Virus record (IMG/VR): IMGVR_UViG_2917587430_000001
Coordinates: 89,228 to 113,599 of that record
Length of the DNA: 24,372 bases
Reading direction: 5' to 3' (one strand)
From: a virus
Positions 1,430 to 17,876 of the stretch are shown here, piece by piece; the first letter of the stretch is position 1, and each line of letters begins with the position of its first letter. A program made the translations under genes and the position numbers. The notes below the pieces were generated by a model. It did no database searches, was not told where the DNA came from, and saw nothing but the letters and a program-made list of their open reading frames with translations.

Positions 1430-2131
1430 TTACTCGTCATTTGCTGCAATACTCCGCCGTAACTTTAAGAATGTTTTATATTTAAGCCCGCACAACATCT
1501 TTAATCGAATTTCGTACATCAAATCTATCACCAACTTCTTAAATCTGTCATAGACTTTCTGATCAACCTTTTCCTCTGATGTTAAATCACCTCCATGAGC
1601 TACAGCATTGCGTAACCTTAGAAATAGCTCTAAGGATTCCTTTAAATTAGGCTTCGGATGTGTATAGTCTTTCCAATGTTCTGGAAACTTTTCAAGTGCA
1701 AAACTTTTGAGCAGTTTGTTTAAGACATTGAAGCCAACATTGCTCTCAGTATTAACAACTCTTGAAATAGGGCAGTTACTACTAGTGTGGAATACTCTGA
1801 GCGAGGCAAAAAACTTTACCTTCCTATTATCATTTCCGGGATATTCCTTAAACTGTTTGAAAGAGTTTTCCATATGGTGAATAACTATTTCATCGCAAAA
1901 ATCATGGAAATTTATACTGACTTTATTAAGTTCATCAATGTAGAGGTTGAAAGATTTTTGGATGAAGCTTTCCCATAGAGAATAAATCATCGATATTGAT
2001 TGAGTTGAGAAAATGTCTTGATGCTTTGAAGATAGAGAATATCTATTCGTAAAAATTGCCCTCTCAATTTCAAAAAGAACAGATATTCGCTCTTCAATAA
2101 TTTCTTGCAATGCCAAATCAAAATCATGCAT
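1430..2131 (-). CDS. HEPN domain protein (MAE_28990/MAE_18760-like), putative RNase toxin
   Basis: YSLWESFI motif, TESNV motif and HEPN RxxxxH motif (RNAVAH); immediately downstream of a DUF262 gene. Confidence 0.75.
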   Translation of the reverse strand: MHDFDLALQEIIEERISVLFEIERAIFTNRYSLSSKHQDIFSTQSISMIYSLWESFIQKSFNLYIDELNKVSINFHDFCDEIVIHHMENSFKQFKEYPGNDNRKVKFFASLRVFHTSSNCPISRVVNTESNVGFNVLNKLLKSFALEKFPEHWKDYTHPKPNLKESLELFLRLRNAVAHGGDLTSEEKVDQKVYDRFKKLVIDLMYEIRLKMLCGLKYKTFLKLRRSIAANDE

Positions 2132-2149
2132 AGCCGATTGCTAAGTTTA

Positions 2150-3313
2150 TTATTGAAAAATTTCATCTACTCTTCTAAGACGATTTCTAATCCGGCTTCT
2201 ACTGTTAGAAGCGCTTCCGGAGTATCTCTTGAAATCTTCATCACTTTTTAATTCTGTTATTTTTAATTTCAAAAGTTCAAGATCTCCAGTATACTTATCA
2301 ATATTTTGAGCAACTCCGATTAATATACCTTCAAAATAAGCTGGAACGAATAAGTTACTCTCGTTTCTAAATGTCTTGGCATCTCCTATCTGGTTAATTA
2401 ATTCTAAAACTCTCATAATGAGAGATTCATAAGCATCGTAGTCAAAATCAGCATTTTGAACAGTTGCCTCCATAAAGTTATTTAAAAATTTCTCCATATT
2501 TTCATTGATATTTTTAGCATTTCTATAGAAAGCAAAAAATCTAAGAACTAGTTCTTGATCATATAACTCATTAAGTCTGCGAGGACTTAATTGGGTAAGA
2601 CATCCGAAAACATCACTTTGACTAATTTTTAGCAAAAGCTCGTTAAACCTAGGATCTACCCCTCGATAAATTGCATTTCTTATTTCCTGCGGAGTTAGTT
2701 TTGATCCCCCAGAGTTGAGTCGTTTGAACAACTCATACTTCATAGAAGTACTACTTTCTCCTCTCAAAATTTCGACTCTACAAACAGCTCTTTTTAGATT
2801 TATTTTTAGATTTGTTGGAAGACTGTCAATGTTAAAACCTTGTAAACTTTCAACTAATCCTCCTTCTTGCAAAGTCCATTTATTTATGGTTTTTCCCTCT
2901 TCGGTTCCTTCCCCATCTTCCTCTACAATTTCTTCTTCCTCTTCGACTAATGAGCTAACATCCTCTTCCTGATTATCGATTTTCCACCCATCCCCTTTTA
3001 GTTCACCAAAGAAACTTATGAAAGTAGAAACACGTTGTAGTCCATCAACTAACTCCCATACACCGTTTCTATCTTCAGCTACAAATATAGGAGGAATCGG
3101 AATCGAGAGTAAAATAGATTCTATGAGTGCAGTTTTTTGTACTTCTGACCATCGAAACAATCTTTGATATTCTGGTCTAATTATTAATTCATCATTTTTG
3201 TATAGGTTGATCAACTCACCAAAAGAAATGTCGAGCCTATCTGACGAAAGTCTTCTTCTCTCATCTGAGACTGCTTTTTCGAGCAAGGCTACTTTTTCTT
3301 TAAGGTTTTCCAT
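2150..3313 (-). CDS. DUF262 (ParB/Srx-like, GmrS-type) domain protein
   Basis: Motifs PEYQRLFRW, LIESILLSIPIPPIF, VDGLQR, FKRLNSGG..LTPQEIRNA. First ATG at 3313 preferred over the non-ATG start at 3358. Confidence 0.85.
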   Translation of the reverse strand: MENLKEKVALLEKAVSDERRRLSSDRLDISFGELINLYKNDELIIRPEYQRLFRWSEVQKTALIESILLSIPIPPIFVAEDRNGVWELVDGLQRVSTFISFFGELKGDGWKIDNQEEDVSSLVEEEEEIVEEDGEGTEEGKTINKWTLQEGGLVESLQGFNIDSLPTNLKINLKRAVCRVEILRGESSTSMKYELFKRLNSGGSKLTPQEIRNAIYRGVDPRFNELLLKISQSDVFGCLTQLSPRRLNELYDQELVLRFFAFYRNAKNINENMEKFLNNFMEATVQNADFDYDAYESLIMRVLELINQIGDAKTFRNESNLFVPAYFEGILIGVAQNIDKYTGDLELLKLKITELKSDEDFKRYSGSASNSRSRIRNRLRRVDEIFQ

Positions 3314-3425
3314 ATTACTCAGGCTTAGTAAGCTTTTCCAAGTATAACGAGCTGGCAATAAAATGAATACTCAGATGTCTTCATTGATGACCGACCATGT
3401 AAAAGAAAGAACTTAGTGTCTAGCA

Positions 3426-3510: not shown

Positions 3511-3620
3511 CCCCTTTTTTGGCAGCTATACGGCATACTTGCGAGATGATACCCAATTTTCAGTAACTAAACAGCAAGTTTGCAGGATGACTTCCTAGTT
3601 TCAGGGCGCTGTTTATCAAG

Positions 3621-3778
3621 TCTGATGGATAATCTTGAAGATTAGGAGAGTTATCCGTCAAACATGCAGGATAACTTCCTCAGTTCCGGTATCACCGAGC
3701 ATCTAACCTTGAATGGCACAACCTCCTTCCCCTCGCCCATTAGATCAGGTACGGCAGTCTATTTGACTCAAGCATTTC
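3621..3778 (+). repeat. Diverged direct repeat (copy 1) of intI upstream region and 5' coding end; copy 2 at 17569-17725
   Basis: Colinear shared blocks TCTGATGG, CTTGAAG, GTTATCYGTCAAACATGCAGGATA, CAGTTCCGGTA, ATGGCACAA, ATTAGATCAGGTAC, ACTCAAGCATTTC. Confidence 0.9.
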
Positions 3779-4073: not shown

Positions 4074-4712
4074 ATGCAAGCTCTTACTCGTGTTCAACAA
4101 CAGCTTTACGACTGGTTGGTTAGCTATTTTGAACAAAACCAATGCCCTCCAACGATTCGAGAAATGCAGGAGGCAATGGGGCTAAAATCTCCTGCTCCCA
4201 TCCAGAGCCGCTTAGACGCATTGGAATTGAAGGGATATATTGAGCGGTCTAGTTATGGTCGTTCTCGCAACATTCGGCTTGTACAAGAGCGGATGCCTGC
4301 ACCCAAAGGCATCCCTATTATGGGAGCGATCGCTGCTGGCGGGTTAGTTGAAACATTCGCTGATGGCGAAGTTGAATATGTTCCAGAAGCTTTTCTTGCA
4401 GCAAAAACGTCTAGCCATGAGATGTCAAAGCATTTTGCTGTTCGTGTTCGGGGGGATAGCATGATCGACGCTTCAATCACCTCAGGTGATGTAGTTTTTT
4501 TGAAAAAACCTGATGATCCAAAAGCTATTAAGAACGGCACGATTGTGGCGGCAAGGGTGGAAGGTCAAACAACGCTCAAATACTTGCAGCGTGTAGACGA
4601 GGAGACTATCAGACTTGAACCTGCAAACTCTAATTTTTTACCTATAGATGTCAACGCTGAAGAGATAAACATTCAGGGAGTATATGTTGGGAGTGTGCGA
4701 GGTTTAATTTAA
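4074..4712 (+). CDS. lexA: LexA-family repressor (cyanobacterial type)
   Basis: N-terminal PPTIREMQEAMGLKSPAPIQSRL wHTH typical of cyanobacterial LexA; Ala-Gly cleavage site (IAAG), catalytic Ser (GDSM) and Lys (TTLK), LEPAN motif. Confidence 0.88.
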   Translation: MQALTRVQQQLYDWLVSYFEQNQCPPTIREMQEAMGLKSPAPIQSRLDALELKGYIERSSYGRSRNIRLVQERMPAPKGIPIMGAIAAGGLVETFADGEVEYVPEAFLAAKTSSHEMSKHFAVRVRGDSMIDASITSGDVVFLKKPDDPKAIKNGTIVAARVEGQTTLKYLQRVDEETIRLEPANSNFLPIDVNAEEINIQGVYVGSVRGLI

Positions 4713-4794: not shown

Positions 4795-5535
4795 TCACCT
4801 CGCCAAACGAGTTAAAGCCGACTGCATCTGTTTGCGGAACTGCGCTCCATTCAAATGCAATTCCTTTGCCAAAGTTTTGCGAGGCACACGGCTGAAGTAA
4901 GCTGCCTCGATTAGCTCACGGTCTGCCGCTGGCATCTCGCTCAGTCGTTGCTGAAGTTGCTGTTGGGCGATCGCTAGTCGTGACGTAGCTACCACTTCGG
5001 TGCGGCAGGTCTGTTCTGGCATCAACCCCTCCTCGATGCTGGTGTGAAAGTCCTCGTCGAGTGAACTTGTTTTTTGGTTGGCGATCGCCCCCCGAACTTC
5101 CCGCAGCTTTACAACTTTCGTGCCTAGCTCAATGGCTAATTCCTGTTCGTTTGGGAACCTACCGTGCCGAGCCGACCAAGCCAACTCAACCCGATTAGCC
5201 TCAGCATTGAACTCGCGCCAGCGCCGGGGAATCTTGACCGTACTGCCGTGGTCACGCAGGTGGTGAAGGATTGCGCCTCTAATGTAGGGGACGGCAAAAC
5301 TGCTGAAAGCAATGCCCTTTGTAGGGTCGAAGCGTTCGATTGCCTTGTTCAGTCCCAAATAGCCAATCTGCTCTAGATCTTCGTAAGCAGTGGCGCAGCG
5401 TTCTGCCCATCGGTGAGCAATCTCTCGCACTAGGTTCAGATTCTCAACTGCGACCCGATTTCTTAATCGCACCGTGTTCTGCTGTGAAACGGTTTTGGTG
5501 CGGTAGTAATTCCAAATTGATTCTGCGGCTGCCAT
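4795..5535 (-). CDS. Sigma-70 family group 3 sigma factor (SigF/SigB/FliA-like)
   Basis: Region 2 motifs NLNLVREIAHR, YEDLEQIGYLGLNKAIERFDP, FSSFAVPYIRGAILHHLRD, VKIPRRW; region 3 PNEQELA; divergent region 4. Confidence 0.88.
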   Translation of the reverse strand: MAAAESIWNYYRTKTVSQQNTVRLRNRVAVENLNLVREIAHRWAERCATAYEDLEQIGYLGLNKAIERFDPTKGIAFSSFAVPYIRGAILHHLRDHGSTVKIPRRWREFNAEANRVELAWSARHGRFPNEQELAIELGTKVVKLREVRGAIANQKTSSLDEDFHTSIEEGLMPEQTCRTEVVATSRLAIAQQQLQQRLSEMPAADRELIEAAYFSRVPRKTLAKELHLNGAQFRKQMQSALTRLAR

Positions 5536-5698
5536 CTAATACCTACCTTTGTTAATAAGTGGCAGGTAGAAGAAAACTCTGTTGACGCTGCCGTAACTCG
5601 ATTACAGCACCTTAGACACCTTGGACAGATTGCGGCGAATACTGAAAAATTTGGTGTTTGCCGCAGATTGATACAAAAGCTCCTGAGAATTACGGATA

Positions 5699-7147
5699 TT
5701 AGTAGCCCCATCCCGCTTCGCTTACGACCCAAACAGTCTGATGAGACTCCAGCCAGTTGATTGCTTGGGTGCAGGCATCGACCTGATCATCGTAAACTCC
5801 ATTAGGGAACTGAGAAAATTCCAGAATGAAATCGTGAATCCAGGGAGCAATACTGGAGTCTGGCAAAAAGATATTTCCAGCCTCGACATAAGGGGCGATC
5901 GCCACTGCTCTGACGACCTTACCTCCCTCCGGCTCGATTGGAATCAGTCCTGAGACCTCCCGTTTCAGCAAATCAACAACGGCTGAGCCGTTTGCCTTGT
6001 CCTCAATCAGCTTTGCGTGAGCATCAGGATAACGGGCTGCCAGAATGCGAATTGCCTGGAGAGTGCTGTTAATATCCATGCGATCGCGAATTTGGTCGAG
6101 CAAATAATATCGACCGCCCAGCTTGCCCCAAACCTGTCCCACTACGAAGTCTGATGATTTGGTTTCTTTAAAGGCGCAGTCCCACGACAGCACCACCTCA
6201 TCAAATCGGTCTGGCAGTTCCCTGTAAAACTGCCACCAGCTCCGCTTAAAGTAATCTCCCTCCAGCGGCGACGGGCGCTGCTGATAGAGGGCACTCCAAA
6301 ACAGCGTGCCGACCTTGCCCTTGATGCGCTTAAGTTTCTTCAGGTCAAACCGTTCAGGATTCAGCGCCTCTCCTGCCTGCCTCCAGTCCGGCTCAATAGT
6401 ACAGCTCGCTGGAAAATCCTGCGCTGTCTCTTCTTTAATTGCCTCAAAGTTAACGACGTGCCAGTTTTCTGGGTCTTCTCCAGACCGCTCCTGCCCAATC
6501 AGCCAGCCTGACAGGTCATCTTCGTGCCATCGGGTTTGTACCACGACGATTGCCGCGTCTGGCTCGGCGCGGGTGTAGAAGGTTGAGCCATACCAATCCT
6601 TCTGTTTAGAGCGAATGCGATCGCTCATCGCCTCCTCAGCATTTTTGAGCGGGTCATCAATGATTCCACATGACCCAAATCCTTTTCCTGTAATTGGGCC
6701 ACCGACCCCAGCCGCCCAGCAACCACCGCCCTCCGGAGTCTCCCAGTTCTTCACCGCCGAAGCATCCTCGCGCAACACCCCACCAATGTCGCGGTAGGCA
6801 TCACGAGAGGCACGGCTGAATGTGTAGGCAAGCTCCGCGGCATAGGAGTTGATACCAACCCACTTCTGAGGATGCTTGTAGAGCAAATAGGCAGGAAATA
6901 GCTTAGAGGCAAGCTGGGACTTCCCGCCTCTGGGGGGCATAAACACCAAAACTCGCTTCAGATTGCCATCGGCGACTCGTTGCAAAACATTCGCTAAGAC
7001 TTCGCAGTGGCGATACCACTGGTAGCGAGGATAAACACGATTAACAAACTCTCGGAACGAGAGCGATCGCCGTTCCTCTTCCCTGCGTCGGCGTAACTCC
7101 AGTTCTACCGCTGCTCTAATCCGAACCTCATCAAGCTGCGACAACAT
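5699..7147 (-). CDS. terL: Phage terminase large subunit
   Basis: Walker A MPPRGGKS, Walker B IIDDP, QTRWHEDDL, WSALYQQRP, nuclease motifs SWDCAFK..SDF, IEDKANG, FPNGVYDDQVDA. Confidence 0.93.
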   Translation of the reverse strand: MLSQLDEVRIRAAVELELRRRREEERRSLSFREFVNRVYPRYQWYRHCEVLANVLQRVADGNLKRVLVFMPPRGGKSQLASKLFPAYLLYKHPQKWVGINSYAAELAYTFSRASRDAYRDIGGVLREDASAVKNWETPEGGGCWAAGVGGPITGKGFGSCGIIDDPLKNAEEAMSDRIRSKQKDWYGSTFYTRAEPDAAIVVVQTRWHEDDLSGWLIGQERSGEDPENWHVVNFEAIKEETAQDFPASCTIEPDWRQAGEALNPERFDLKKLKRIKGKVGTLFWSALYQQRPSPLEGDYFKRSWWQFYRELPDRFDEVVLSWDCAFKETKSSDFVVGQVWGKLGGRYYLLDQIRDRMDINSTLQAIRILAARYPDAHAKLIEDKANGSAVVDLLKREVSGLIPIEPEGGKVVRAVAIAPYVEAGNIFLPDSSIAPWIHDFILEFSQFPNGVYDDQVDACTQAINWLESHQTVWVVSEAGWGY

Positions 7148-7646
7148 GACACGGGTTTTCCCCGGCTGCTAGCCGCTGAAGTTGCTCATCTGAGAGATTT
7201 GAATAATCAATCTTGACGTTGAGATGGGTCTCCTCTTTCTCACCTAGAGCAGTTCTGCCGATTTGCTGGAAGCGCTGTAGAGCTTTACCTAGCTCATCTA
7301 ATTGCTTTGAAGATAAAGGATCACCGCTCCTTCTAGTTCCTTCAATTGCCTCGTTAATTTGCTGAAAGATTAGGTTCAATCCGCCTTTGGCAAGGTTGAA
7401 GCATTGAGTATCCCACCCTGCCAGGTCGCCAGCCAGAGCGGTTAATTTGTGCTCCTGCCGCTTATCCGAAACCATCTGAACGAAGCGCTCAGCCTCAATC
7501 TTCCAGTTCTCCTTAGCTACCTTCTCCTGTAAATAAGAAGGCGAACATTTATACTTTGCAGACAATTGCTCTAAGGTCGGGCGAGACTTCTCATCCGGAG
7601 CCTGGACGTATTCGTCCTTGATGACTTGCCAATTATGCTTTGCCAC
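7131..7646 (-). CDS. Putative terminase small subunit
   Basis: Overlaps terL start. N-terminal NWQVIKDEY..PTLEQLSAKY..ENW HTH-like segment and C-terminal DYSNLSDEQL motif, both common in TerS. Confidence 0.7.
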   Translation of the reverse strand: MAKHNWQVIKDEYVQAPDEKSRPTLEQLSAKYKCSPSYLQEKVAKENWKIEAERFVQMVSDKRQEHKLTALAGDLAGWDTQCFNLAKGGLNLIFQQINEAIEGTRRSGDPLSSKQLDELGKALQRFQQIGRTALGEKEETHLNVKIDYSNLSDEQLQRLAAGENPCHVVAA

Positions 7647-7847
7647 TTTCCCTCAGCTTCCTGCAATTTCCAACTTTCTGTCGGATCGTTCCCACGCCTT
7701 GCATAGTAGAGTTTTCACGGTCGTGGAGGCAGGAGGCGACCGCCAATTCAATCGGCTCACGTCGGAAAAGTGGTGGTCTTGTTGGAAAAATTCCGTTTTC
7801 TACCGACAGCTACTCCAAAATTTGGTCAACATAAGACCGCACTTTGC

Positions 7848-8118
7848 TTAAGCTTGGGCGTTTAAGAGATAGTCGGTTTTACCGCTGTTGCACTCATTGC
7901 AGGCTTGTAATTAGGTTGTCTTCCGAATCGCTACCACCTTTCGCTCTAGGATGAATGTAGTCAACAACCAGTTCTACATTTTCACCACTGGTAAGTAGGC
8001 TTCTGCTACAGTAGCGACATTTGAACCCGTCCCTCTGCAAGATTCGAAACCTGGTTGATAGCAAACCTGGACGAGATGAAGCACTCTTCAACACAGGATT
8101 TAGAATTCGCTCCTGCAT
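7848..8118 (-). pseudogene. HNH endonuclease, frameshifted
   Basis: RFRILQRDGFKCRYC...VDYIHPRAKGGSDSEDNLIT, then removing one A near 7905 restores ACNECNSGKTDYLLNAQA*. The catalytic DH is DY. Confidence 0.8.
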
Positions 8119-8346
8119 CTCTATAACCTCAAGGTTGTCCGCTAACTGTCGAGCAATTTTGATTAGGTCAGCTTTGGAGTGCGATCGCCACCATCAGTCT
8201 GGTATGAAACGACAACCAGAAGGCAGGATATTCTAAAAATCCATTTCTAGGAACGGCGATGGCATAACCGAACTCTCAAACCAAGCAGATGTCAGTAGTA
8301 TAGCCCTTTCCTATTTCTCAAATTCTCAGGTTGTCTTAGGCTTGTC

Positions 8347-8379
8347 TTATCCCAGATATTGGTCAAATATCTGGGATAA
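8347..8379. repeat. Perfect 14-bp inverted repeat, 5-nt spacer
   Basis: TTATCCCAGATATT-ggtca-AATATCTGGGATAA. Confidence 0.9.
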
Positions 8380-8507
8380 AGACTTAAGGAGGTAAGTATA
8401 ATTGCTTATTCACGATCGGTTGAAATAGAGCATTTTCGTTCTCCTCCTCTCACGCTTTAATCGAAAGAGCAGGGATTCCAATCTGCCCAAATGGACGGCA
8501 TTATGCA

Positions 8508-8605
8508 GAATCATTCGCCGATCCATCTAAAACAGCTGGATCGGCGGAATGATTCCCTCTAATAATAGTTGAGGTGCCTAATATCAACTGTTATTAGAGG
8601 GAATC
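8508..8605. repeat. Two overlapping long inverted repeats
   Basis: GAATCATTCGCCGATCCA..TGGATCGGCGGAATGATTC (8508-8555, one bulge) and GATTCCCTCTAATAATAGTTGA..TCAACTGTTATTAGAGGGAATC (8551-8605, 21/22 match, 11-nt spacer). Confidence 0.9.
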
Positions 8606-8781
8606 CTATAGCTCATTACACCAAAGTGATTGCTAAAGCGTATAAGCTGTATGAGGCTTCCAGCAAAATTCGGACTGCCTACGATGCTGGAGAACTGAAC
8701 TGGAGTGGACTCTATAACCTGGCATTTAGCTTCAAGAAGGCAGACACCGTAGAGACTGCTGAAGCTCGGATGTCCGCTTAA
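8606..8781 (+). pseudogene. Probable gene fragment of unknown function
   Basis: Open frame ...LYEASSKIRTAYDAGELNWSGLYNLA... with protein-like composition and no convincing start; weak resemblance to ParB-type helical regions. Confidence 0.3.
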
Positions 8782-8787
8782 CAAATT

Positions 8788-8821
8788 TGGCGATCTCACA
8801 GAGATACCCGCAAGGGGTCGC
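8788..8821 (+). repeat. HIP1 site split by 24-nt insertion (small dispersed repeat-like), copy 1
   Basis: TG-GCGA-[TCTCACAGAGATACCCGCAAGGGG]-TCGC; 33/34 identical to 9019-9052. Confidence 0.8.
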
Positions 8822-9229
8822 AAAGATTCGCGGCTAGAGACAGTGTGTGATCCATGCCTGGGCACTGGTCGGCTGCTGCTGACTGCCTCCAACTACTCGC
8901 TGAGGCTGTATGGGCAAGACATCAACGACACGGTGATCAAAGCTGCCTTAGTCAACGGCTATCTCTACGCTCCCTGGCTGGTCAAGCCGTTGCCATTTCT
9001 AGATTCTGAACTGCTCTATGGCGATCTCGCAGAGATACCCGCAAGGGGTCGCTCAGCTTCTATCTCAGACTCCATGACGGCGACAGCCGACCAAAATCCT
9101 GCCGCTGCTCAATACCTCGCAGAGACAGAACACGACGCAGAAAACCAGTGGAAGTTTGAACCCATCAAGAAGCGTAAGCGCAAGGGAAAGAACGACTCCG
9201 AGGAAGTTTGGCAGGGTTCAATCTTCTAA
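8822..9229 (+). pseudogene. C-terminal fragment of an N6-DNA-methylase-like SAM-dependent methyltransferase
   Basis: SAM-binding motif VCDPCLGTGRLL and LYGQDIN. No NPPY/DPPY motif, and no N-terminus (frame begins at the HIP1 insertion). Confidence 0.6.
9019..9052 (+). repeat. HIP1 site split by 24-nt in-frame insertion, copy 2
   Basis: TG-GCGA-[TCTCGCAGAGATACCCGCAAGGGG]-TCGC inside the methyltransferase frame (GD-LAEIPARG-R). Confidence 0.8.
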
Positions 9230-9240
9230 TTTGAATAATG

Positions 9241-9269
9241 TTGACACTAATCAAGTTAAAGCTGATAAT
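9241..9269 (+). promoter_or_regulatory. Sigma70-type promoter
   Basis: TTGACA-17 nt-GATAAT. Followed by GGAG RBS and ATG at 9330 whose frame has a stop at codon 8. Confidence 0.6.
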
Positions 9270-9433
9270 TTAATTGTCTAAGCTGTTTTAGGCACCTCAA
9301 CACACGACACTAATCGACTTGGAGCAATCATGTCTCAACAACTTACTGGCTGAACGAATTTCGACCTTGAAGCGGCGACTCGCTACGACGAAGGATTTGT
9401 TGGGTTTCCTTCATCAACCCAACCGACGAATGA

Positions 9434-9789
9434 GCGATCGCACTTCTCAATGTGGGTTTGCAGTTTTCGAAGGTTGCAGTAATTCTTACTCTTCAACCAG
9501 TTAATGACCGATTGCCATTGTTCTGGTTTAAGACATCCAACCGAGTCAGCGTAGCCTTACTTCAACCCCAGAGTTCCGAACTGTTCGTACCGTCCCACTA
9601 ACTTCTATGACTGCTTCAATCTCCTAGTGTTTGTATCCTTTGAGGTCTATATGAACCGCCAAGGCTCGTTTCAGTTCACGGGCAGCCGGATTTGAGTCAA
9701 TTAATTCAGCAAGGCTGTCTGATATCGGAGGCTTTCAAAGCAACTTTGGTTCCTTCAATCTCTCAACATATCATTTAGAACTGCTATAG
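9434..9789 (-). mobile_element. IS630-family remnant: left end and degraded transposase N-terminus
   Basis: End sequence CTATAGCAGTTCTAAATGA (9789-9771, TA-flanked). Translation LAELIDSNPAARELKRALAVHIDLKGYKH*EIEAVIEVSG / YEQFGTLGLK*GYADSVGCLKPEQWQSVINWLKSKNYCNLRKLQTHIEK resembles cyanobacterial IS630 HTH regions. Truncated at a HIP1 site. Confidence 0.72.
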
Positions 9790-9805
9790 CAAGAACTGCT
9801 TCTTC

Positions 9806-12800
9806 TCAGATTGATTTAGGAGAGATCAAATCTTGGAAGTATTCATTACTATGCAAGTCTAACCATGCTACATCCTGACGCGCCCAAATTACGGCTTGAC
9901 GCTTCAAGGATATAGACTGCTCTAAGTAATTCAAAGCAGCATCAATATTTCCGGTTACTGCTTCCAGACCTCCCAAACCATAAAGGGCTGTGCCACGAGA
10001 TTTTGTATAAAGCAAAGAGGTAAGGGTTGGTCGAACCGCTTCGATTTGAAGATAAGCATCAGTTACTCCTCGCAATCGAACAGTAGCAATAGCGATATTA
10101 TAAAGATCGCTAAAGGCATTAGGGTTTCGCTTAAGTGACTCTCTATAATTCTGAATTGCCTCAGAATAACGCCCAAGATAAGTAAGTACTAACCCTTGAT
10201 TTCCCCAGCAATCGCGTCCTGAAGACATTGCTGTATCAAAGTCAGTAAGAGCCTCGTCATATAATCTCATTAATCGATACGTATCAGCCCTATTTTCAAC
10301 AGCCCAAGCATCTTGTGGGTCAAGTTCAATAGCTCTGTCAAGGTCTTCTAGAGATTTCTCATACTGTTCTAACTCACGATAAGTTATGCCACGATGAGCA
10401 ATTGCCCAAGCATCTTGTGGGTCAAGTTCAATAGCTCTGTCAAGGTCTTCTAGAGATTTCTCATACTGTTCTAACTCACGATAGGTTATGCCGCGATGAG
10501 CAATTGCCCAAGCACCTTGTGGGTTAAGTTCAATAGCTCTGTCAAGGTCTTCTAGAGATTTCTCATACTGTTCTAACTCACGATAGGTTATGCCGCGATG
10601 AGCAATTGCTGGAATATAAGATGAGTCTGAATCAATTGCCTCAGAAAAATCTACTATGGCATAATCCTTATATCCTGCTTTGCTCATTGCTCGAGCACGG
10701 CAATAGCGTACCACTGCTCTTTCTAATTGTGGTATTGGTGCTTCTGTAATTAACCGAGGAATTTCAAGGCGAGGATACACCAATTGATGTATCCTAACTA
10801 ACGAGAGCCAACATTCAGGGCAAGCTGGCTCTGCCGATAATGATTTAAGAAACGAATCAATAGCCTTTTCAGGCAGTCCCATACTTTGGAATGTTAAACC
10901 TATTTCTTTTCGCCCCACATGCTCAAAATCTGGCTCCGATGCGATCGCCTTCTGAAGATCAGTTAAACTTGCTTCATAACGCTCCATCAAACGATAGGTT
11001 ATACCGCGCTGCGCAATTGCCCGACTATATTTTGGGTCGAGTTCGATAGCTTTATCAAAGTCTTTAAGCGCCTCTTCATAACGCTCCATTAAACGATGGA
11101 TTAGACCGCGCTGCGCAATTGCCCAACTATATTTTGGGTCGAGTTTGATAGCTTTATCAAAGTCTTTAAGCGCCTCTTCATAACGCTCCATTAAACGATG
11201 GATTAGACCGCGCTGCGCAATTGCCCAACTATATTTTGGGTCGAGTTCGATAACTTTATTAAAGTCTTCGAGCGCCTCTCTATAACGGTCTATATCTTGA
11301 TAAGTTAGACCGCGTTGCGCAATCTTCCAACTAGATTTTGGGTCGAGTTCGATAGCTTTATCAAAGTCTTTGAGCGCCTCCTCATAACGCTCCATGTCTT
11401 GATAAGTTTCACCACGACTAGCAATTGCCCAAGCATAAGCTGGATCTAATTCAATGGCTCTATCAAAATCTATTAACGCCTCTTCATAATATTCCATCAG
11501 ACGATACACTTCGCCTCGCCAAGCCAAACCAATAGGTTTCCACTGTGCCTCAATCGTAGAATGTCCAATAAGAGCAGTAAACATTTCAGCAGCAACTTCG
11601 TAGCGTTCCTCCTCATACGCCTTTAATCCTTCAATCAGTTGCTCACTCCAACGCAAAATTTCGGTTGCATCTCTATCTTGGGCTGCCCGCATCATTGTTT
11701 CCGCCCAACGTAACGCAAACTTGCGTTGATTCTTTAGAGCAGCTAGAAACTCGTTTAAAGCAATTGCAAGATTCTTTTGTGGAGCTTGGCATAGTCGATG
11801 ATATAACACATTCAATGTATAGCTTTGCCAAGCTAAATCTCTTCGTTGCACTTCTTCGCTCAACTGCAGTTCGTTGCGAAGTCGCTCAAAGTAATCTGCT
11901 AGTTTTCCATGTAATTCAGCCCAGCTCTGAGGATAAGCGAGCCGTTTATGACGTAACATTTGAGATCTGACGATTTCGTGATACATCCAGCCATCAGTTC
12001 TTTCCTCAACAAAAGGCATTTCCTTCAACCAATCAAATAATTCATCTGCTTCATTCCATTCTCTAAGTTGGGCTAAAACGTCTCTGTTTAAGTACTGTGG
12101 AATAGCAGCATCTAAAGCCACCTGTCGTCGTTTTGAGTCATCTACCCAGCTCAAGAAACGTTCAACTGCTGTTCCGCTAGGATCACCAACCTCATCAGGC
12201 GTGTGTGGAATCTCTGTAGCCAATGTGGCAACTAGCAGAGGTAACCGTCCAGAAAGCCGTAAAATAACATCAACGACCGTTTTACTAGTGATTCCTTTTT
12301 GAGCAAGAAACTGTTGGGCTTCCTCTTCCGTAAATGGCTCTAGAGGCATTCGCGTTATTAATCCTTCATAGGATGCCCAACGATTTTTGTCTAGTTCGTG
12401 TCGTCCGGCAATCACGAACAATACATTCAAAGGTATTTCACCATACCGACCTTCTATAACGTCCTGGAGCCAGTTATCTAAAAAATTTCCTGTCCGCTCG
12501 TAAGTATCAAAAAACAAAATTATTCCAGACTTCTCAGCAATCTTCTTAATTTCTTCTAAGAATAGAGGCGTTAAAACTTCAATTGGTTCTTGAACTAAAC
12601 GAACTTCATCTTTATTAGTTAACTTCTTCGCGACGTAAGATGCCCATTCTCCTGCCTGTGCTGCTGCCACATCCTCATCTACCAAATCAAAGACAGCTCC
12701 TCCAACTGGAATTCGTCGCGCCAATTTTACGCTAGCTTTAACAGCCGTTTTACTAACAAAAGCAGAAAAGCCTTGTGGAGCTTCTGCATCAGTCTCTAAT

Positions 12801-13159
12801 TCTTGGCGTTTCTGACGAAAAACTTTGTAGCGTTCGCTAAATTGCCCCAGTTTATAGTGCTTCTCCAGATGTTCTCCAAATCTTCCCAGGACTTCTGGCA
12901 CACTTTTTTCTGCCTCGTCAATATGAGCGGTGATTACTCCTCTCTCCTCTGCAATCTTACGAAACTGCTTGAGTAAAGTACTTTTACCAATTCCTCCTTG
13001 CCCTGAAGCATTAAATATGAACCAACGCCTGTAGTCTTCCAAGGGCAGTTCCAAGTTCTGTCGAAACTGAGCAACCTGCTCTGTCCGTCCCACAAAGCCA
13101 GACTGTTGGCGCTGTTTGAGAACGTCTTGGATACTTCTGACTCTATTTAATGAATTCAT
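9806..13159 (-). CDS. P-loop NTPase (STAND/AAA-like) with C-terminal TPR array
   Basis: FVGR motif, Walker A GQGGIGKST, Walker B LFFDTYE, IAGR sensor, LEPF, SGRLPL (GxP) motifs; >10 34-aa TPR units. Confidence 0.88.
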   Translation of the reverse strand: MNSLNRVRSIQDVLKQRQQSGFVGRTEQVAQFRQNLELPLEDYRRWFIFNASGQGGIGKSTLLKQFRKIAEERGVITAHIDEAEKSVPEVLGRFGEHLEKHYKLGQFSERYKVFRQKRQELETDAEAPQGFSAFVSKTAVKASVKLARRIPVGGAVFDLVDEDVAAAQAGEWASYVAKKLTNKDEVRLVQEPIEVLTPLFLEEIKKIAEKSGIILFFDTYERTGNFLDNWLQDVIEGRYGEIPLNVLFVIAGRHELDKNRWASYEGLITRMPLEPFTEEEAQQFLAQKGITSKTVVDVILRLSGRLPLLVATLATEIPHTPDEVGDPSGTAVERFLSWVDDSKRRQVALDAAIPQYLNRDVLAQLREWNEADELFDWLKEMPFVEERTDGWMYHEIVRSQMLRHKRLAYPQSWAELHGKLADYFERLRNELQLSEEVQRRDLAWQSYTLNVLYHRLCQAPQKNLAIALNEFLAALKNQRKFALRWAETMMRAAQDRDATEILRWSEQLIEGLKAYEEERYEVAAEMFTALIGHSTIEAQWKPIGLAWRGEVYRLMEYYEEALIDFDRAIELDPAYAWAIASRGETYQDMERYEEALKDFDKAIELDPKSSWKIAQRGLTYQDIDRYREALEDFNKVIELDPKYSWAIAQRGLIHRLMERYEEALKDFDKAIKLDPKYSWAIAQRGLIHRLMERYEEALKDFDKAIELDPKYSRAIAQRGITYRLMERYEASLTDLQKAIASEPDFEHVGRKEIGLTFQSMGLPEKAIDSFLKSLSAEPACPECWLSLVRIHQLVYPRLEIPRLITEAPIPQLERAVVRYCRARAMSKAGYKDYAIVDFSEAIDSDSSYIPAIAHRGITYRELEQYEKSLEDLDRAIELNPQGAWAIAHRGITYRELEQYEKSLEDLDRAIELDPQDAWAIAHRGITYRELEQYEKSLEDLDRAIELDPQDAWAVENRADTYRLMRLYDEALTDFDTAMSSGRDCWGNQGLVLTYLGRYSEAIQNYRESLKRNPNAFSDLYNIAIATVRLRGVTDAYLQIEAVRPTLTSLLYTKSRGTALYGLGGLEAVTGNIDAALNYLEQSISLKRQAVIWARQDVAWLDLHSNEYFQDLISPKSI
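10302..10609 (-). repeat. Three near-identical 102-bp tandem repeats (TPR units)
   Basis: Unit starts at 10302, 10404, 10506; encodes AIAHRGITYRELEQYEKSLEDLDRAIELDPQDAW. Confidence 0.95.
10972..11520 (-). repeat. About five 102-bp tandem repeats (second TPR unit type)
   Basis: Units in register at 10972, 11074, 11176, 11278, 11380; encode AIAQRGLIHRLMERYEEALKDFDKAIELDPKYSW. Confidence 0.9.
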
Positions 13160-13294
13160 AGGTGTCTTAACACGAAGTGTCTGAAGTTCTTAAGTAGCTG
13201 GGTGCAATTAGATGTAGGACGTGTTAGTGCCAGTGGAAGACATCAAGCCATCCTAACCCTGTAGAATTGAAAAGCCATTTAATGCCCCCAATCA

Positions 13295-13371
13295 GCTTAA
13301 CAATCGTCTTCAGCGGCGGTGTAGGGGCTGGGGAAGAAAACTCCCCTGGCTACCCGATAGCTCGGTTAGGG
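13295..13371 (-). mobile_element. Disrupted attC-like site
   Basis: Minus strand: CCCTAAC 2 nt after the stop codon of the helicase gene, and an intact right half GCTGAAG-ACGATT-GTTAAGC. The interior is replaced by an intron-like hairpin. Confidence 0.6.
13314..13358 (+). ncRNA. Group IIC intron 3'-end remnant (3' strand of domain V and domain VI)
   Basis: CGGCGGTGTAGGGGCTGGGGAAGAAAACTCCCCTGGCTACCCGAT resembles the IIC terminus CGGTGGTGTGGGGGCTGG...CCGGCTACCCGAT with bulged A and AY end. Antisense to the cassette genes. Confidence 0.65.
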
Positions 13372-13373
13372 TG

Positions 13374-16300
13374 CTAGAGTCGCACCTTAATTTGGGAGAT
13401 ATCAACCTCCTCTGATTTGATTGCTCGAATATATCTGAACTTCCAGACTTCAGTATTTTCAATTATTCTAAAACCGGCAGTTTCAAGACCTCTAACAAAC
13501 CCTTGAAGATCTTTAATACGGGACGTTACTTCATAAATCCAGAGTTGCCCATCAAGTTTTAGGGTGCGGGATGCTTCTCGAATGTAATCAGCAATGTTCA
13601 AACCCATCAGTGACAAATTGAACATAGCAACGTCCAGACAGCCATCCTCCAAAGGTACACGAACCATGTCACACTCAATGACTGAGTCATTGATAGCAAT
13701 GAAATCAAAGCTATGAACCGTATGCTTGCCGACAAGAGCTTTAGCTATCAATGCTTCCCCACAACCCAAATCAGCGACAACTAAATCAGAACGCTTTTGA
13801 AGCCACTTAATAGCCTCCTCATAGGGAATAACTGTCCAAGTTTTTCGAGCGTCTTGATAAAGTGTATGGTATTGCATCCACTCTTCCGGATTGCCTTGTA
13901 AGCGTTTATAGGTAGTGTGACTGTAGCTATTACTCCAACGGGCATTCATCCGGCTAAAGTCACCGTATTGAACATTACGGCGTCGAACATCTGATGGATC
14001 AATATCTGGAAGTGGGACAAAGATTTTAGGACGAATAGCTAGTTTCTGTTCACCTGTCTTCAACCTTTCTAACCATTTACGCAGATCTCGAAATGCTTGG
14101 GATTCAGTCCTTAGCTGACCTTCAGGCATTACACCATCAACCGCAGCATCGGCAACCGTTTGCTTGTTTTGTAGTCGCGCTAATCGCCCCTCATCCCAAC
14201 TCCATCGTTCTCCATCATCTAAGCCGTAAGTTACAGGCATGAGGATTGTGAGAGTGTCATGAACTTGCCCCTGACGATTTAATCGTCCTTCTAGTTGCTC
14301 TAGTTCGGCACTTGTCCAAGGTGGAATATTTAAAATCAAGCGATCGCAGACTCGTTGAAAGCCATCAACACCGGTAGCCATAGCACTACTGGCAATCAGA
14401 ATGTCAGTAGAACCGTCAATGAAATTGTTACGCCCACTTTTATCACCTCCCATGTGAAAACCAACAGTCCATCCGTCTGCCTCGATTGCCTCTTTTAGCT
14501 GATCGACGATGCCCTCAACATAGTGGGTATAAACAATAGTTTTGGGACGGAGTTCCTTGAGAATGGTTGGAATTCTAGCACGGGTAAGGATCTGCTCCAT
14601 CTTCAAAATAGAGGTGCCTTCTTCGCGAATTTTATCAACTAAATGAGTGCAGTCAATTGGAAGCCTAACTCTATTGATTCTAATTTTGGGTTTGACTCTA
14701 GAACGAATTCCCAGAGTCACAAACGCCTGATGCAATCGCATACAGTTATTAAGGGTGGCTTTCTCATTTAATTCAGGTCGTTCTACACCTGTCACTAATT
14801 CAACCAAGCTTTTACCTTCTTTTAGGTTGTTAATAACGGGAGTTGCACTCATTCCAAGCACATGAAGATTAGGATTCTTCTCTGCTGCGTTAGTAATCAA
14901 GGCAAGAACCATCTGCCGTCGTTTAGACGGATCATCACCACGTTGCTTGCAACGATGAATCTCATCCACAATGATGAAGTCAATTTGATATCGCTCTAGC
15001 AGGTGCCTAATGTGAGCAGGCGTTGAAGGTTGTTGGAACATCTCGTGATTTAAGAGGATGTAATGATGCCCCTCTTCAATATCTATCCAGTGAGGATTAA
15101 AGTTTTTGATTGTAACTCGGCTATCTGGAAAAACATGTTTAATTTCTCCATGCCAGTTTGGCACCGTATCTAATGGACAGATGATGATAGTGAGATGGGC
15201 ATCAATGATGCGACTGCTAAGAATGCCACCAATCGTTTTACCTGTTCCTGTCAATGAGAGGTTTAACATTCGCTGCTGGTTACGTAAATTCACCGCAGCT
15301 AATTTTTGCATTAAGTTTGGAGGTGTGACTTTGCCATCAACTCGGAATGCCCAACCTGATGGAATTGCCATATCGTGCGCTTGGTTATATTCGTCAAGAA
15401 ATTGATCTCTTACTTGACGACCATAGCCATCATCCGTAAAAGCTTCAATTGCTTCAACGGCAGATTCATCCTCAAAGACTTCTGCCCAGATCCGATTGCG
15501 TCTAGAAGCAATAAAAAAATCAATTGCTTCTTGATCAGCTGAAGCAACAATTTCGCTGCTTAAAAATTCTAGACTTTTTCTAACCTTGACTTTTGGTAAC
15601 TCATTGAGCTCATTAAGTTGCTCTTGAGAAGCACCAGTTGTTTCAAAGGTTTCAGATTCCTCAGATATGCTAAGTGATGGAATAGTATCGACAATCTGTA
15701 GCTCGGTATCAGCTTTAATAACATCAACTGAATCAGTTTCAGGTTCAGACGTTTTGACTCCCTTACCTTGAATTACATCTCGAAGTTTTTGACCTGCCAG
15801 TTTACCCTTAATAATCTCTTTAACAATCTTAAGTCCTTCAAGGTTTGTCGTATCTAAAACACCCGATTGCTCAAATATTTTATATAATTCAGCCTGAGTC
15901 AGGTTTGGAATATGAACTTCTAAACTAGCAACGAACTGGCGAATAGCCTCTATAGTCCAACCCGAACCACAACGAGCACATCCACTATTGCCTTGACTCC
16001 AAGAAGCTCTAGTAATGCTAGTTATTCTAGCTTTCCATTCATATCCATCAATAGGACATTTAAACCAAGCGTCTTGGCTTGAACCTCTAGTTAATTTATC
16101 AGGATTTAAACCAAGACTAGTATTTTTGCCATAATCCCAATACTGAGCTACGTAATTAGGGTAAAGTCCAATCAAGGATGTAGTTTCAGTAGCGATTAAA
16201 CCTCTGCAAGCTGGACAACCGCTGTTACCCTTTTGCCAAGCTGATCTGGCAACTGAAGTAATAGATGCGACCCACTCATGCCCATCAACAGGGCACTTGA

Positions 16301-17429
16301 AGAAAGCTTCTTTACTTGATCCGCTAGTCAGTTTCGTTGGATCGAGTTCTAGTTCATTATTAGCTTTGTATAACCAATACTTAGCGACTTCATCAGGAAA
16401 TTCAATTGCGATTGGCTCTCTACGCTGCCATTCACCACGCTTACGTTCAGCAGTTCCATTGCAAACCCGACAGCCAGCATTGCCTTTTGACCATTGCTGA
16501 TTGATCGTTGCAGTAATACTTGCTTGCCACTCATTGCCGTCGTAAGTGCATTTGAACCAAACCTTCTTGTTGCTTGCAAGAGTCAGTTTTTCTGGATCTA
16601 AGTTAATTTCACTATTTTTTCCATAATCCCAGTATTGTTTGACAAGTTCTGGATATCCCTCCATCAAAGTAGATTGTTTCTCAGGCTTCTTCTTTTTCCC
16701 TGCACACACTGGGCATCCACTTGTACCATACCTATCCCAACTGTTTGTGATATCATTTGACTTCTTCTTCCAAGAATGACCATCAACCGGACATTTAAGC
16801 CAGAAAAACGGTGTGGAACTCCCAGCAGAAACTTCTCCAGGATTGAGATCTCCATTTCTCTCGTAATCCCATAATTCTGCAACTCGTTCTGGATAAAGGG
16901 CGGCTAAGCTTCTTGAATAAAGTTCTTGCTTGGCACTTTCTTTTTTTTCTTCTTCAGCTGCCGCCTCTGCTTCTTCACACTCCTTTAAATACTCATGAAA
17001 TGCAGGATTTGCATTAAGGATTTGTCTAACTCTTTCTCTACTAATTCCATACTGATTACCTATTTGCTGCCTATTAAATCCTTGTTTGTAAAGTTCCAGA
17101 AGCTGATTGCTTTTCTCAAGTTTTGCTTGTCTTAATTTGTTTGGTTTAGGTAACTCTTTTGTTCCTTCACCATCTAATTCAAGCAAACGGCTCGATTGGT
17201 CATTCTTTTGTTCTTGCCAAGATTCGCAAACAGCCTGGCCTAAGCTTGTAAGAAAAACTCGATTATCTTCTAGTTTAATAAGTCCCCTATCTTGAAGATT
17301 CAGCACTGTGTCTTTGACAGAACTAAACTGTTCAACTGGTTGAGGAGATAGATATAGTGATCTAAGAATGAGCGTCTGGTTCTTGCCAAATCCTTTTGTA
17401 GCTTCCCGGAGCTTGTCTGCATTATCCAT
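13374..17429 (-). CDS. Multidomain protein: HTH + 4x DUF4379-like zinc ribbons + SF2 helicase/ATPase + Rrp8-like (Methyltransf_8) SAM methyltransferase
   Basis: HTH QQIGNQYGISRERVRQI; four YP...WDY.KN...P..L..GS...W.KC..DG..W...GCxxC repeats; helicase motifs TGTGKT, DEIH, SATP, TGVDG, QLEGRLNRQGQ; C-terminal VVADLGCGEA, HSFDFIA, CDM..VPLED..LDVA.F.LSLMG.N..DY.REA.R.LK..G.L.I.EV.SR. Confidence 0.82.
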   Translation of the reverse strand: MDNADKLREATKGFGKNQTLILRSLYLSPQPVEQFSSVKDTVLNLQDRGLIKLEDNRVFLTSLGQAVCESWQEQKNDQSSRLLELDGEGTKELPKPNKLRQAKLEKSNQLLELYKQGFNRQQIGNQYGISRERVRQILNANPAFHEYLKECEEAEAAAEEEKKESAKQELYSRSLAALYPERVAELWDYERNGDLNPGEVSAGSSTPFFWLKCPVDGHSWKKKSNDITNSWDRYGTSGCPVCAGKKKKPEKQSTLMEGYPELVKQYWDYGKNSEINLDPEKLTLASNKKVWFKCTYDGNEWQASITATINQQWSKGNAGCRVCNGTAERKRGEWQRREPIAIEFPDEVAKYWLYKANNELELDPTKLTSGSSKEAFFKCPVDGHEWVASITSVARSAWQKGNSGCPACRGLIATETTSLIGLYPNYVAQYWDYGKNTSLGLNPDKLTRGSSQDAWFKCPIDGYEWKARITSITRASWSQGNSGCARCGSGWTIEAIRQFVASLEVHIPNLTQAELYKIFEQSGVLDTTNLEGLKIVKEIIKGKLAGQKLRDVIQGKGVKTSEPETDSVDVIKADTELQIVDTIPSLSISEESETFETTGASQEQLNELNELPKVKVRKSLEFLSSEIVASADQEAIDFFIASRRNRIWAEVFEDESAVEAIEAFTDDGYGRQVRDQFLDEYNQAHDMAIPSGWAFRVDGKVTPPNLMQKLAAVNLRNQQRMLNLSLTGTGKTIGGILSSRIIDAHLTIIICPLDTVPNWHGEIKHVFPDSRVTIKNFNPHWIDIEEGHHYILLNHEMFQQPSTPAHIRHLLERYQIDFIIVDEIHRCKQRGDDPSKRRQMVLALITNAAEKNPNLHVLGMSATPVINNLKEGKSLVELVTGVERPELNEKATLNNCMRLHQAFVTLGIRSRVKPKIRINRVRLPIDCTHLVDKIREEGTSILKMEQILTRARIPTILKELRPKTIVYTHYVEGIVDQLKEAIEADGWTVGFHMGGDKSGRNNFIDGSTDILIASSAMATGVDGFQRVCDRLILNIPPWTSAELEQLEGRLNRQGQVHDTLTILMPVTYGLDDGERWSWDEGRLARLQNKQTVADAAVDGVMPEGQLRTESQAFRDLRKWLERLKTGEQKLAIRPKIFVPLPDIDPSDVRRRNVQYGDFSRMNARWSNSYSHTTYKRLQGNPEEWMQYHTLYQDARKTWTVIPYEEAIKWLQKRSDLVVADLGCGEALIAKALVGKHTVHSFDFIAINDSVIECDMVRVPLEDGCLDVAMFNLSLMGLNIADYIREASRTLKLDGQLWIYEVTSRIKDLQGFVRGLETAGFRIIENTEVWKFRYIRAIKSEEVDISQIKVRL

Positions 17430-17568
17430 AGCTGAACCTGAACAATTAGAGTTGCCTATGTAATAGTTTTAGGCTTCACACATCAGTTTGCCCTTCTACT
17501 ACTCAAAATTCACCAAACCTTAAAGCTTTCGGGCATTTCAGGCAACCGATTTTACATTTCTTGCCAAT

Positions 17569-17725
17569 TCTGATGGTTAACCTTGAAGGTCAGGGATGTT
17601 ATCTGTCAAACATGCAGGATAGCTCCCCCAGTTCCGGTACTACCCGGCGTTTACCCTTGATGGCACAATACCCTTCCCCTTGCCTATTAGATCAGGTACA
17701 GCAATCTATTCAACTCAAGCATTTC
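17569..17725 (+). pseudogene. intI: Second integron-integrase 5' remnant with upstream region
   Basis: Homologous to 3621-3778. Encodes (MQDSSPSSGTTRRLPL)MAQYPSPCLLDQVQQSIQLKHF, then switches to unrelated sequence. Confidence 0.75.
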
Positions 17726-17787
17726 CTTTGGTTGAATCCTCAGCAGGTTCACAAACGGCAGTACCGTCAGGCGGAGGCATACGCAAA

Positions 17788-17819
17788 CCTTGTCGAATTG
17801 CTGGGGGAATTCGACAAGG
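17788..17819. repeat. 12-bp perfect inverted repeat, possible terminator for the leftward operon
   Basis: CCTTGTCGAATT-gctggggg-AATTCGACAAGG, about 60 bp past the stop of 17877..18452. Confidence 0.5.
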
Positions 17820-17876
17820 CTCTGTTTTGAGCGGGCTTGATTGCGCCACACGCCCGTAAAGTCGAGTTGATCTTAA

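Follow-up and report, generated by a model that had tools for sequence, protein, structure and literature searches.

The viral record IMGVR_UViG_2917587430_000001 of IMG/VR carries a gene for a real, intact, widespread and so far uncharacterised single-chain enzyme, in which the methylase-translocase theme of mobile elements is combined with an unexpected catalytic domain of the Rrp8 type. We analysed a window of 24,372 nt, i.e., positions 89,228–113,599 (the last 24 kb) of this 113.6-kb record. The gene occupies positions 13374–17429 of the window on the minus strand, as do all of its parts described below, and its open reading frame (ORF) of 1351 amino acids (aa) starts with ATG, is open throughout and ends with the stop codon at 13374–13376. 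An initial annotation of this DNA had described the product as an intact chain with a helix-turn-helix (HTH), four zinc ribbons, a superfamily 2 (SF2) helicase and an Rrp8-like methyltransferase, and all of the motifs that it quoted were located. The domains that it expected from a Pfam scan, DUF4379, ResIII/SNF2, Helicase_C and Methyltransf_8, were found, and the methyltransferase was indeed of the Rrp8 type instead of an N6A/C5 or a generic small-molecule type, as detailed in the following paragraph. The translocating ATPase that it proposed is consistent with the Snf2-like fold of our structural model.

The C-terminal part of the protein (aa 1151–1351; 13377–13979) was recognised by Pfam, by sequence matches in PDB and by fold as a class I S-adenosylmethionine (SAM) methyltransferase of the Rrp8 type with its N-terminal helical extension. 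It matched Methyltransf_8 (PF05148) over aa 1154–1326 with an E-value of 2.6e-46 and 158.7 bits, against a curated cut-off of 27. Human RRP8/nucleomethylin (2ZFU) was the only PDB sequence match (E 2.8e-32, and 1.7e-40 in a profile search), and the structural alignment by Foldseek superimposed the domain on 2zfu_A with a TM-score of 0.85 on the target, an rmsd of 2.5 and 34% identity. The methyltransferase motifs are ADLGCGEA at 1219, HSFDF at 1239, VPLED at 1258, LSLMGLN at 1272 and EVTSR at 1300. In an alignment of 104 sequences, D1220, G1222, C1223, G1224, D1242, Y1187, H1188 and W1198 were almost invariant, and this set includes the SAM motif D-x-G-C-G, the acidic residue after strand 2 and the Y-H pair in the Rrp8-type N-terminal extension. 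A motif scan of the 1351-aa protein detected no [DNS]PP[YFWH], and neither an N6_Mtase domain, a target recognition domain (TRD), an integrase, a transposase nor a nuclease, the last as stated in the initial annotation, was among its Pfam matches (E <= 1). By profile and fold, the C-terminal domain is a member of Methyltransf_8, and its sequence characterises the putative catalytic domain as Rrp8-like, not as an N6A or C5 DNA methyltransferase.

The ATPase core (aa 701–1090; 14160–15329) is of the Swi2/Snf2-like SF2 type, as judged from motifs, Pfam and fold. It contains motifs I (GTGKT, 728), II (DEIH, 822), III (SAT, 861) and VI (QLEGRLNR, 1045), and motifs I, II and VI were almost invariant in the 104-sequence alignment. 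The Pfam matches on the motor (aa 707–880) were ResIII (1.5e-8), DEAD (1.5e-6) and SNF2-rel_dom (8e-6); the last one reached 25.6 bits against a cut-off of 24.9 over aa 746–879 only, and ResIII scored higher. Helicase_C matched weakly at aa 957–1054 (E 3e-4; 21.5 bits, below the cut-off of 23.5), and the PHROG family phrog_62 'DNA helicase' spanned aa 511–871 (E 1e-31). The fold was examined with an AlphaFold model of aa 480–1351, made from the 104-sequence alignment with distant relatives (pLDDT 82.4, pTM 0.70); a model from 28 close homologues was poor (pLDDT 52.8) and was discarded. Swi2/Snf2 remodeller entries made up 47 of the 48 PDB matches listed by Foldseek (E 1e-16 to 1e-13), including Mot1, CSB complexes, BAF/PBAF, INO80, Chd1, ISWI/SNF2h, ALC1, SMARCAD1 and DDM1, and RNA helicases were absent among these 48. 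A profile search of PDB sequences gave only weak matches to the motor, all of them DNA enzymes (RecG, Sulfolobus Snf2/Rad54, ISWI, Hel308, Rad25 and CHD1L), and the fold matches in BFVD included SNF2/HepA helicases of phages along with several methylase-SNF2 fusions, also from phages. In the model, therefore, the motor has a two-lobe fold that resembles the Swi2/Snf2 translocases of double-stranded DNA (dsDNA), and not RNA helicases. The motor is joined to the methyltransferase by a helical bridge (aa 1091–1150; 13980–14159), which is predicted to form long helices.

The N-terminal half of the protein consists mainly of putative DNA-binding modules. The variable region of aa 1–100 (17130–17429), which is duplicated in the Acidobacteria copies of the homologue alignment, has no Pfam match, and its pattern suggests a winged helix. 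The following HTH (aa 102–140; 17010–17126) is conserved in the homologue alignment and resembles Sigma70_r4 and HTH_7, with matches (E 5.5e-5 and 1.1e-4) slightly under the Pfam cut-offs. Four treble-clef zinc ribbons of DUF4379 (aa 176–490; 15960–16904), with CxxC at 239, 320, 405 and 484, were detected by Pfam in four stretches (E 2.7e-45), and the number of these repeats varies from 3 to about 8 in the aligned relatives. Conserved helical domains of no assigned family at aa 491–700 (15330–15959), delineated from Pfam, the alignment and the AlphaFold model, surround an acidic stretch (aa 556–608) that is predicted to be disordered. According to PMC12350094, arrays of CapR, DUF4379 and DUF723 probably confer DNA-binding specificity on phage homing endonucleases.

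The likeness to Rrp8 brings in RNA as a possible substrate. An Rrp8-like action on rRNA or nascent RNA, placed by the array and the motor at genes such as rRNA operons or at RNA polymerase, would alter translation or inactivate transcripts. Eukaryotic Rrp8 itself, a stand-alone nucleolar methyltransferase, forms N1-methyladenine (m1A), and its known substrate is 25S/28S rRNA. The conservation of the whole Rrp8 catalytic module including the N-terminal extension accords with such an action, as do the Sigma70_r4 and RNA_pol_A_CTD modules of some members, a weak NCBIfam match (E 0.004) to the RNA-polymerase-associated Snf2 protein RapA, and the many translation genes near relatives on large viral contigs, i.e., those for MetRS, MnmA and CCA/poly(A) polymerase, and a deoxyhypusine-synthase-like gene immediately downstream in two loci (L049 and L052). 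However, the motor is like the dsDNA translocases, the N-terminal repeats are of DNA-binding types and, to our knowledge, the helix modified by eukaryotic Rrp8 is absent from bacterial 23S rRNA. We consider an RNA-directed enzyme unlikely.

Size, distribution and spread of the family

A word-indexed search retrieved 443 proteins, and the 119 listed besides the query were 65–88% identical to it, mostly over the full length; their sources were Acidobacteria and a wide range of cyanobacterial genera, and one was encoded on a Phormidium/Leptolyngbya plasmid. Contigs of one genome per species yielded 39 loci, mostly in cyanobacteria, with six in Acidobacteria, which hold near-identical copies of the Snf2-Rrp8 fusion, one in Blackallbacteria and one partial locus in Thiomargarita. 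When the methyltransferase domain alone was used in an exhaustive search, 2703 representatives were found at E <= 1e-3 and 202 at E <= 1e-30, and a helicase family and Methyltransf_8 occurred together in 30 of the 30 top representatives scanned. The scanned members carry DUF4379 (one to seven copies), INT_rpt, Sigma70_r4, RNA_pol_A_CTD, CapR, HNH_repeat and DUF723 as N-terminal modules. The ESM Atlas cluster to which the protein is assigned has 1498 members, 99% with Methyltransf_8 and 91% with Helicase_C, and Uroviricota is its commonest recorded taxon, while a separate cluster of 89 members is labelled Nucleocytoviricota. The Snf2-Rrp8 fusions form a large family, uncharacterised so far, whose members have exchanged their N-terminal arrays of DNA-binding modules.

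In the IMG/VR contigs, a scan for close relatives gave nothing, and a profile scan detected 12 viral loci with 33–40% identity on low-GC contigs of 26–379 kb. The architecture was the same in nine of the nine full viral proteins scanned, with INT_rpt, DUF4379 or DUF723 in front. Relatives were present in 3 of 72,556 plasmid records. A copy with 46% identity is present on plasmid pCRI9333.01 of Crinalium epipsammum PCC 9333. Given these distant relatives on plasmids and on large contigs of uncultivated viruses, the family is no less one of mobile elements than one of hosts. Among 401 evenly sampled cyanobacterial species, Methyltransf_8 was matched in 12, and nine of these matches were within open frames of 1293–1659 aa (about 2% of the species); no match was obtained in 14 control genomes. 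In the gene tree, the cyanobacterial orders are mixed, and Acidobacteria and Blackallbacteria are nested among the cyanobacteria. These results show a sporadic distribution and horizontal spread, often on mobile elements.

Selection on the gene was estimated as dN/dS against the seven homologues with a computable dS; the pair with the Blastocatellia locus (L031) was saturated. The value was 0.10–0.15 for the whole gene, 0.04–0.09 for the motor, 0.06–0.10 for the methyltransferase, 0.08–0.16 for the zinc ribbons and 0.06–0.27 for the helical bridge, and was highest, 0.25–0.43, in the first 100 residues. All of the domains are under purifying selection. The dS was unequal between segments, which suggests recombination.

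The initial annotation had called the protein a candidate defence enzyme and proposed to check its homologues for enrichment in defence islands. A clustering of every ORF from the window and the 39 loci revealed no neighbour family common beyond one lineage, and the best shared neighbour was FtsW, in five related loci. The 149 nearest neighbour ORFs from 37 loci were mostly housekeeping genes, with scattered insertion sequence (IS), toxin-antitoxin, XisI and integrase genes. Fifteen of the 149 matched PADLOC (E <= 1e-10), mostly via generic domains, and about five were judged to be genuine defence genes, so that no enrichment was seen in this count, which has no formal background control. A conserved partner gene is absent from these loci. 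The label of a defence enzyme is thus only partly supported; it is unproven, and the genomic context does not favour it.

Neighbours of this kind would also suit a housekeeping remodeller, that is, a Snf2 enzyme like Mot1 or RapA that clears proteins off DNA and methylates a protein or a small ligand. Vertical inheritance at one locus (FtsW...apc), seen in five loci of which four are labelled Microcoleus and one 'Phorm 6', agrees with this idea, as does the strongly purifying selection. Relatives of the linker and the motor, with 30–34% identity, were found at L058 (2881–6696; 1272 aa) and L059 (4735–9543, minus strand; 1603 aa). Both proteins stop after Helicase_C and have no methyltransferase, and their hosts are small cyanobacterial genomes of 1.7–1.9 Mb, which again fits a housekeeping role. 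One of the two bears RNA_pol_A_CTD and Sigma70_r4 modules in front. A housekeeping gene is nevertheless difficult to reconcile with the intact gene in only nine of the 401 cyanobacterial species, with the conflict between the gene tree and the species tree, in which lineages outside the cyanobacteria are nested within them, with at least four broken copies, each in two to five ORFs, and with the copies on viral contigs and plasmids. We regard this role as quite unlikely.

The flanks of the gene were compared between differing contexts. DNA similarity to the window ends 16 nt or less past the stop codon and starts 36–140 nt upstream of the ATG, and in other pairs of loci in differing contexts the homology reaches 36–320 nt upstream and 0–190 nt downstream of the ORF. 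These short limits would be in line with a selfish mobile gene with arrays like those of homing endonucleases, which spreads with no benefit to its carrier. Two particular loci point in the same direction. In L033, from an uncultured cyanobacterium, the gene is split into two ORFs and is flanked by a 592-bp direct repeat (8950–9541 and 13948–14538, 93.4% identical), which corresponds to the 3' part of a gene of the MR_MLE/enolase superfamily, as if the gene had been inserted with a copy of the target. On a 152-kb viral contig (L051), the relative at 6539–13226 lies between a complete MnmA gene, accompanied by a gene for a GIY-YIG homing endonuclease, and a diverged 3' fragment of MnmA, an arrangement that suggests endonuclease-assisted insertion. 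On the other hand, the protein has no recognised nuclease, integrase or transposase domain, the flank homology is short and of variable length, with neither transposon-like fixed ends nor inverted repeats found, and both enzymatic domains are under strong purifying selection. A purely selfish gene is highly improbable.

Possible action on DNA

We tentatively favour, at less than an even chance, the view that the single chain loads on and translocates along dsDNA and writes a ring-nitrogen mark of the m1A type as a weapon in the conflict between mobile elements and hosts. The N-terminal HTH/zinc-ribbon array would select the DNA, a task also ascribed to these repeat types in homing endonucleases, and the enzyme would travel on the duplex at the expense of ATP. 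During translocation, bases flipped out of the helix would be methylated by the C-terminal domain. Homology to Rrp8 suggests N1 of adenine as the target, and this mark would break Watson-Crick pairing and block replication. In large viral relatives the same machine could act against the host or rival elements, and AlkB-type demethylases of the host would limit self-damage. In the window, the gene appears as cargo of a phage-like mosaic next to a gene for a STAND NTPase, from which the exclusion of incoming DNA is its likely use here. Since a mark on N1 of adenine would block replication, a weapon fits better than a protective mark.

N1-methyladenine in DNA is a replication-blocking lesion that is repaired by AlkB. 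A gene for an AlkB-like 2OG-Fe(II) oxygenase is present on the same contig (G000, 32096–32758, minus strand), 70 kb from the fusion gene. In the cyanobacterial sample, genes of the AlkB family were found in seven of nine carrier genomes versus 97 of 392 others (p 0.0015, kinship and genome size being ignored), and within one family in eight of 10 carriers versus 47 of 111 others (p 0.024, kinship ignored). The co-occurrence in hosts fits m1A chemistry, as a weak and confounded association. A wider proposal, which we consider unlikely, is that the family is a replication poison of viruses and plasmids that acts through N1-methyladenine and is held in check by AlkB, and that the same lineage gave eukaryotes the rDNA-chromatin-associated Rrp8/nucleomethylin.

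Several points weigh against a DNA-directed weapon. The known substrate of Rrp8 is rRNA and not DNA, and N1 of adenine as the methylated atom is suggested only by the 34% identity to human RRP8 and the shared motifs. The AlkB association in hosts ignores kinship and genome size, and most of the carriers are of one lineage; AlkB-family genes were found in none of the 10 viral records bearing a relative, several of which are fragments. The defence-island signal is missing around the homologues, and the 50,697 GenBank phage records had no match to the C-terminal 872 aa (E <= 1e-20) or to the methyltransferase domain (E <= 1e-3). The chromosomal copies are solitary and have no immunity gene, a situation hard to square with DNA damage by the enzyme unless its action is narrowly targeted or restrained. 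The methyltransferase-free relatives L058 and L059 suggest that the motor has a role of its own. Activity, substrate and phenotype are predictions from the sequence. The mark may be either a toxic or a protective one, and it may be placed on DNA or on nascent RNA.

Solitary chromosomal copies are easily explained if the mark is harmless. In such a case, the Snf2 motor would run the methyltransferase along the incoming or replicating DNA of the element itself for self-marking or anti-restriction, as in the dyads of the DarB type, and the Rrp8 domain would have changed its target to an atom that faces a groove. Self-marking is also how PMC5512222 interprets the methylase-SWI2/SNF2 dyads that phages and conjugative elements carry. 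By language-model features, the nearest outside clusters are N6_Mtase+SNF2 and DUF6094+SNF2 fusions; phage 'DNA methylase' fusions are among the BFVD fold matches; and, on a Rhodococcus plasmid, the gene adjoins FtsK/SpoIIIE and is near SSB. However, the methyltransferase is not of the N6A/N4C type, with neither a DPPY motif nor an N6_Mtase match, its closest relative modifies adenine at N1, a position on the base-pairing face where a methyl group is not benign, the domain order is the reverse of that in the DarB-type dyads, and a cognate restriction partner was seen in none of the 37 loci. Self-marking is a possible but doubtful explanation.

If DNA is truly the target, the family would be a new one of DNA methyltransferases, with a ring-nitrogen chemistry on the base-pairing face that is unused by known restriction-modification and anti-restriction systems, and would offer a biological reason for the AlkB-like genes in phages and cyanobacteria. 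If RNA is the target, viruses would be using an RNA methyltransferase tethered to DNA. In both cases, no role has been assigned to a family that counts over a thousand proteins from bacteria, phages and giant viruses, and to which the origin of eukaryotic Rrp8 may be linked. The question is directly testable in a single chain with clear active-site residues.

Surroundings of the gene in the record

A conserved 5' leader or promoter region of up to 140 nt (17430–17569, minus strand), defined by the comparison of the flank DNA, travels with the gene. It contains a core of about 23 nt at 17449–17471 (minus strand), about 20–42 nt before the ATG, with the consensus TAGTACATAGGCACCTCTAATTG in eight aligned loci. 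The copy in the window is two positions off, and the core is kept across differing genomic contexts; it may be an operator or a promoter element. A consensus scan found no sigma-70 promoter at the core, the promoter and terminator scans round the gene were at or below the shuffle level with no consensus promoter in the 5' leader, and the window contained no Rfam families or tRNA genes. For public sequencing runs, no RNA run was listed and all shares were 0.11 or less. The DNA immediately upstream of the cassette is pieced together from two short repeats (window 17565–17855 and 3617–3778; G000 2788–2940, 53210–53339 and 80265–80378), which recur at three and two other places of the contig. One copy sits inside the 3' end of a TnpB-like ORF (G000 52951–54816), and these repeats may be MITE-like or IS-end remnants.

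The genes around the fusion gene encode a STAND NTPase with tetratricopeptide repeats (TPR), terminase subunits, an HNH protein, a sigma factor, a LexA-like repressor, a Rad52/Mgm101-like annealing protein, an RRXRR protein and a NUDIX hydrolase, and the rest of the contig carries a capsid gene, two tape-measure genes, an integrase gene, a second LexA-like gene, and TIR, Mrr_cat and AlkB-like genes. The contig is a mosaic of repeated phage-like segments. The two tape-measure genes, of about 2650 aa each (G000 6505–14466 and 80723–88660), have 78–85% DNA identity, and the two LexA-like genes (G000 16275–16913 and window 4074–4712) are 90% identical. These duplications suggest a pair of related phage-like elements, or a mosaic, and not a single genome, despite the CheckV estimate of 100% for the record.

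Directly downstream of the fusion gene is the gene for the STAND-type NTPase (9806–13159, minus strand; 1117 aa), with AAA_16, a weak nSTAND match and a long TPR array. Some of its tandem TPR units are almost identical (98% over 206 nt, record positions 99529–99836). Its product had no meaningful PADLOC match, with one weak partial match (E 0.0065). The STAND NTPase-TPR was ruled out as a partner gene, as it was absent from all of the 39 other loci. Elsewhere in the window, 1430–3358 (minus strand) encodes a GmrSD_N (DUF262) protein of 402 aa and then a HEPN protein of the RiboL-PSP/MAE_28990 type of 233 aa, in a stretch with a GC content of 0.33–0.38; the two resemble a pair for type IV restriction or for abortive infection. 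At 4795–7646 (minus strand), the genes for the small and large terminase subunits are followed directly by a gene of the sigma-70 family, not by a portal gene, and no portal or capsid gene was found within the window.

Comparison with known systems

In the literature searches, no published description of an Snf2-Rrp8 fusion was found among the papers listed. In the passages of the jumbo-phage review PMC7824862 that were covered, no Rrp8-like enzyme is described, and the term 'Rrp8' is absent from the review. The comparison with PADLOC 2.0 and NCBIfam gave no full-length match to any defence-system protein, but partial helicase matches only. The initial annotation knew of no characterised bacterial system with this architecture but did not exclude one; the absence holds as far as published descriptions are concerned, and needs to be qualified by a loose likeness to the methylase-Snf2 dyads of the DarB type.

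The likeness to Rrp8/nucleomethylin extends over the C-terminal 200 aa in sequence, fold, SAM motifs and the N-terminal helical extension, but in the present protein, of the Snf2 type and 1351 aa long, the domain forms the C-terminal end of a chain that also carries DNA-binding repeats, and it occurs in bacteria and viruses. Type ISP restriction-modification enzymes also combine a helicase, a methyltransferase and a DNA-recognition module in a single chain on dsDNA. Unlike these, the fusion protein had no Mrr-type nuclease, N6A methyltransferase or TRD among its Pfam matches at E <= 1. The helicases DrmD of DISARM, BrxHII of BREX and DpdE of Dpd gave the best matches of the defence library on the motor (BrxHII 2.5e-9, DrmD 5.9e-8). 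However, the matches span just 60–100 residues, the NCBIfam score for DrmD was 31 bits against a cut-off of 610, and the partner genes of DISARM, BREX and Dpd were not found nearby, either in the window or in the related loci. With phage homing endonucleases (PMC12350094), the fusion shares the same repeat types, which in those enzymes are linked to a nuclease and not, as here, to a motor with a methyltransferase.

The closest described kind is the DarB-type dyad, with P1 DarB as its archetype, in which an EcoKI/TaqI-like N6-adenine methylase is located N-terminal to the helicase, with an LPD36 domain in front and within multi-effector proteins (Iyer et al. 2017, PMC5512222). Both kinds have a SAM methyltransferase and an Snf2-like translocase in one chain and are borne by mobile elements, and the logic proposed for both is a methylation of DNA that is coupled to translocation. 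Mobile carriage of the present fusion is seen in the virus record, the 12 viral loci and the three plasmids, and many copies are also chromosomal. In contrast to the DarB-type enzymes of that description, the methyltransferase here is Rrp8-like, lacks DPPY and is C-terminal, and a zinc-ribbon/HTH array forms the N-terminus. The fusion is predicted to work like a DarB-type dyad, but is not a member of that group, from which it differs in the family of its methyltransferase and in its domain order.

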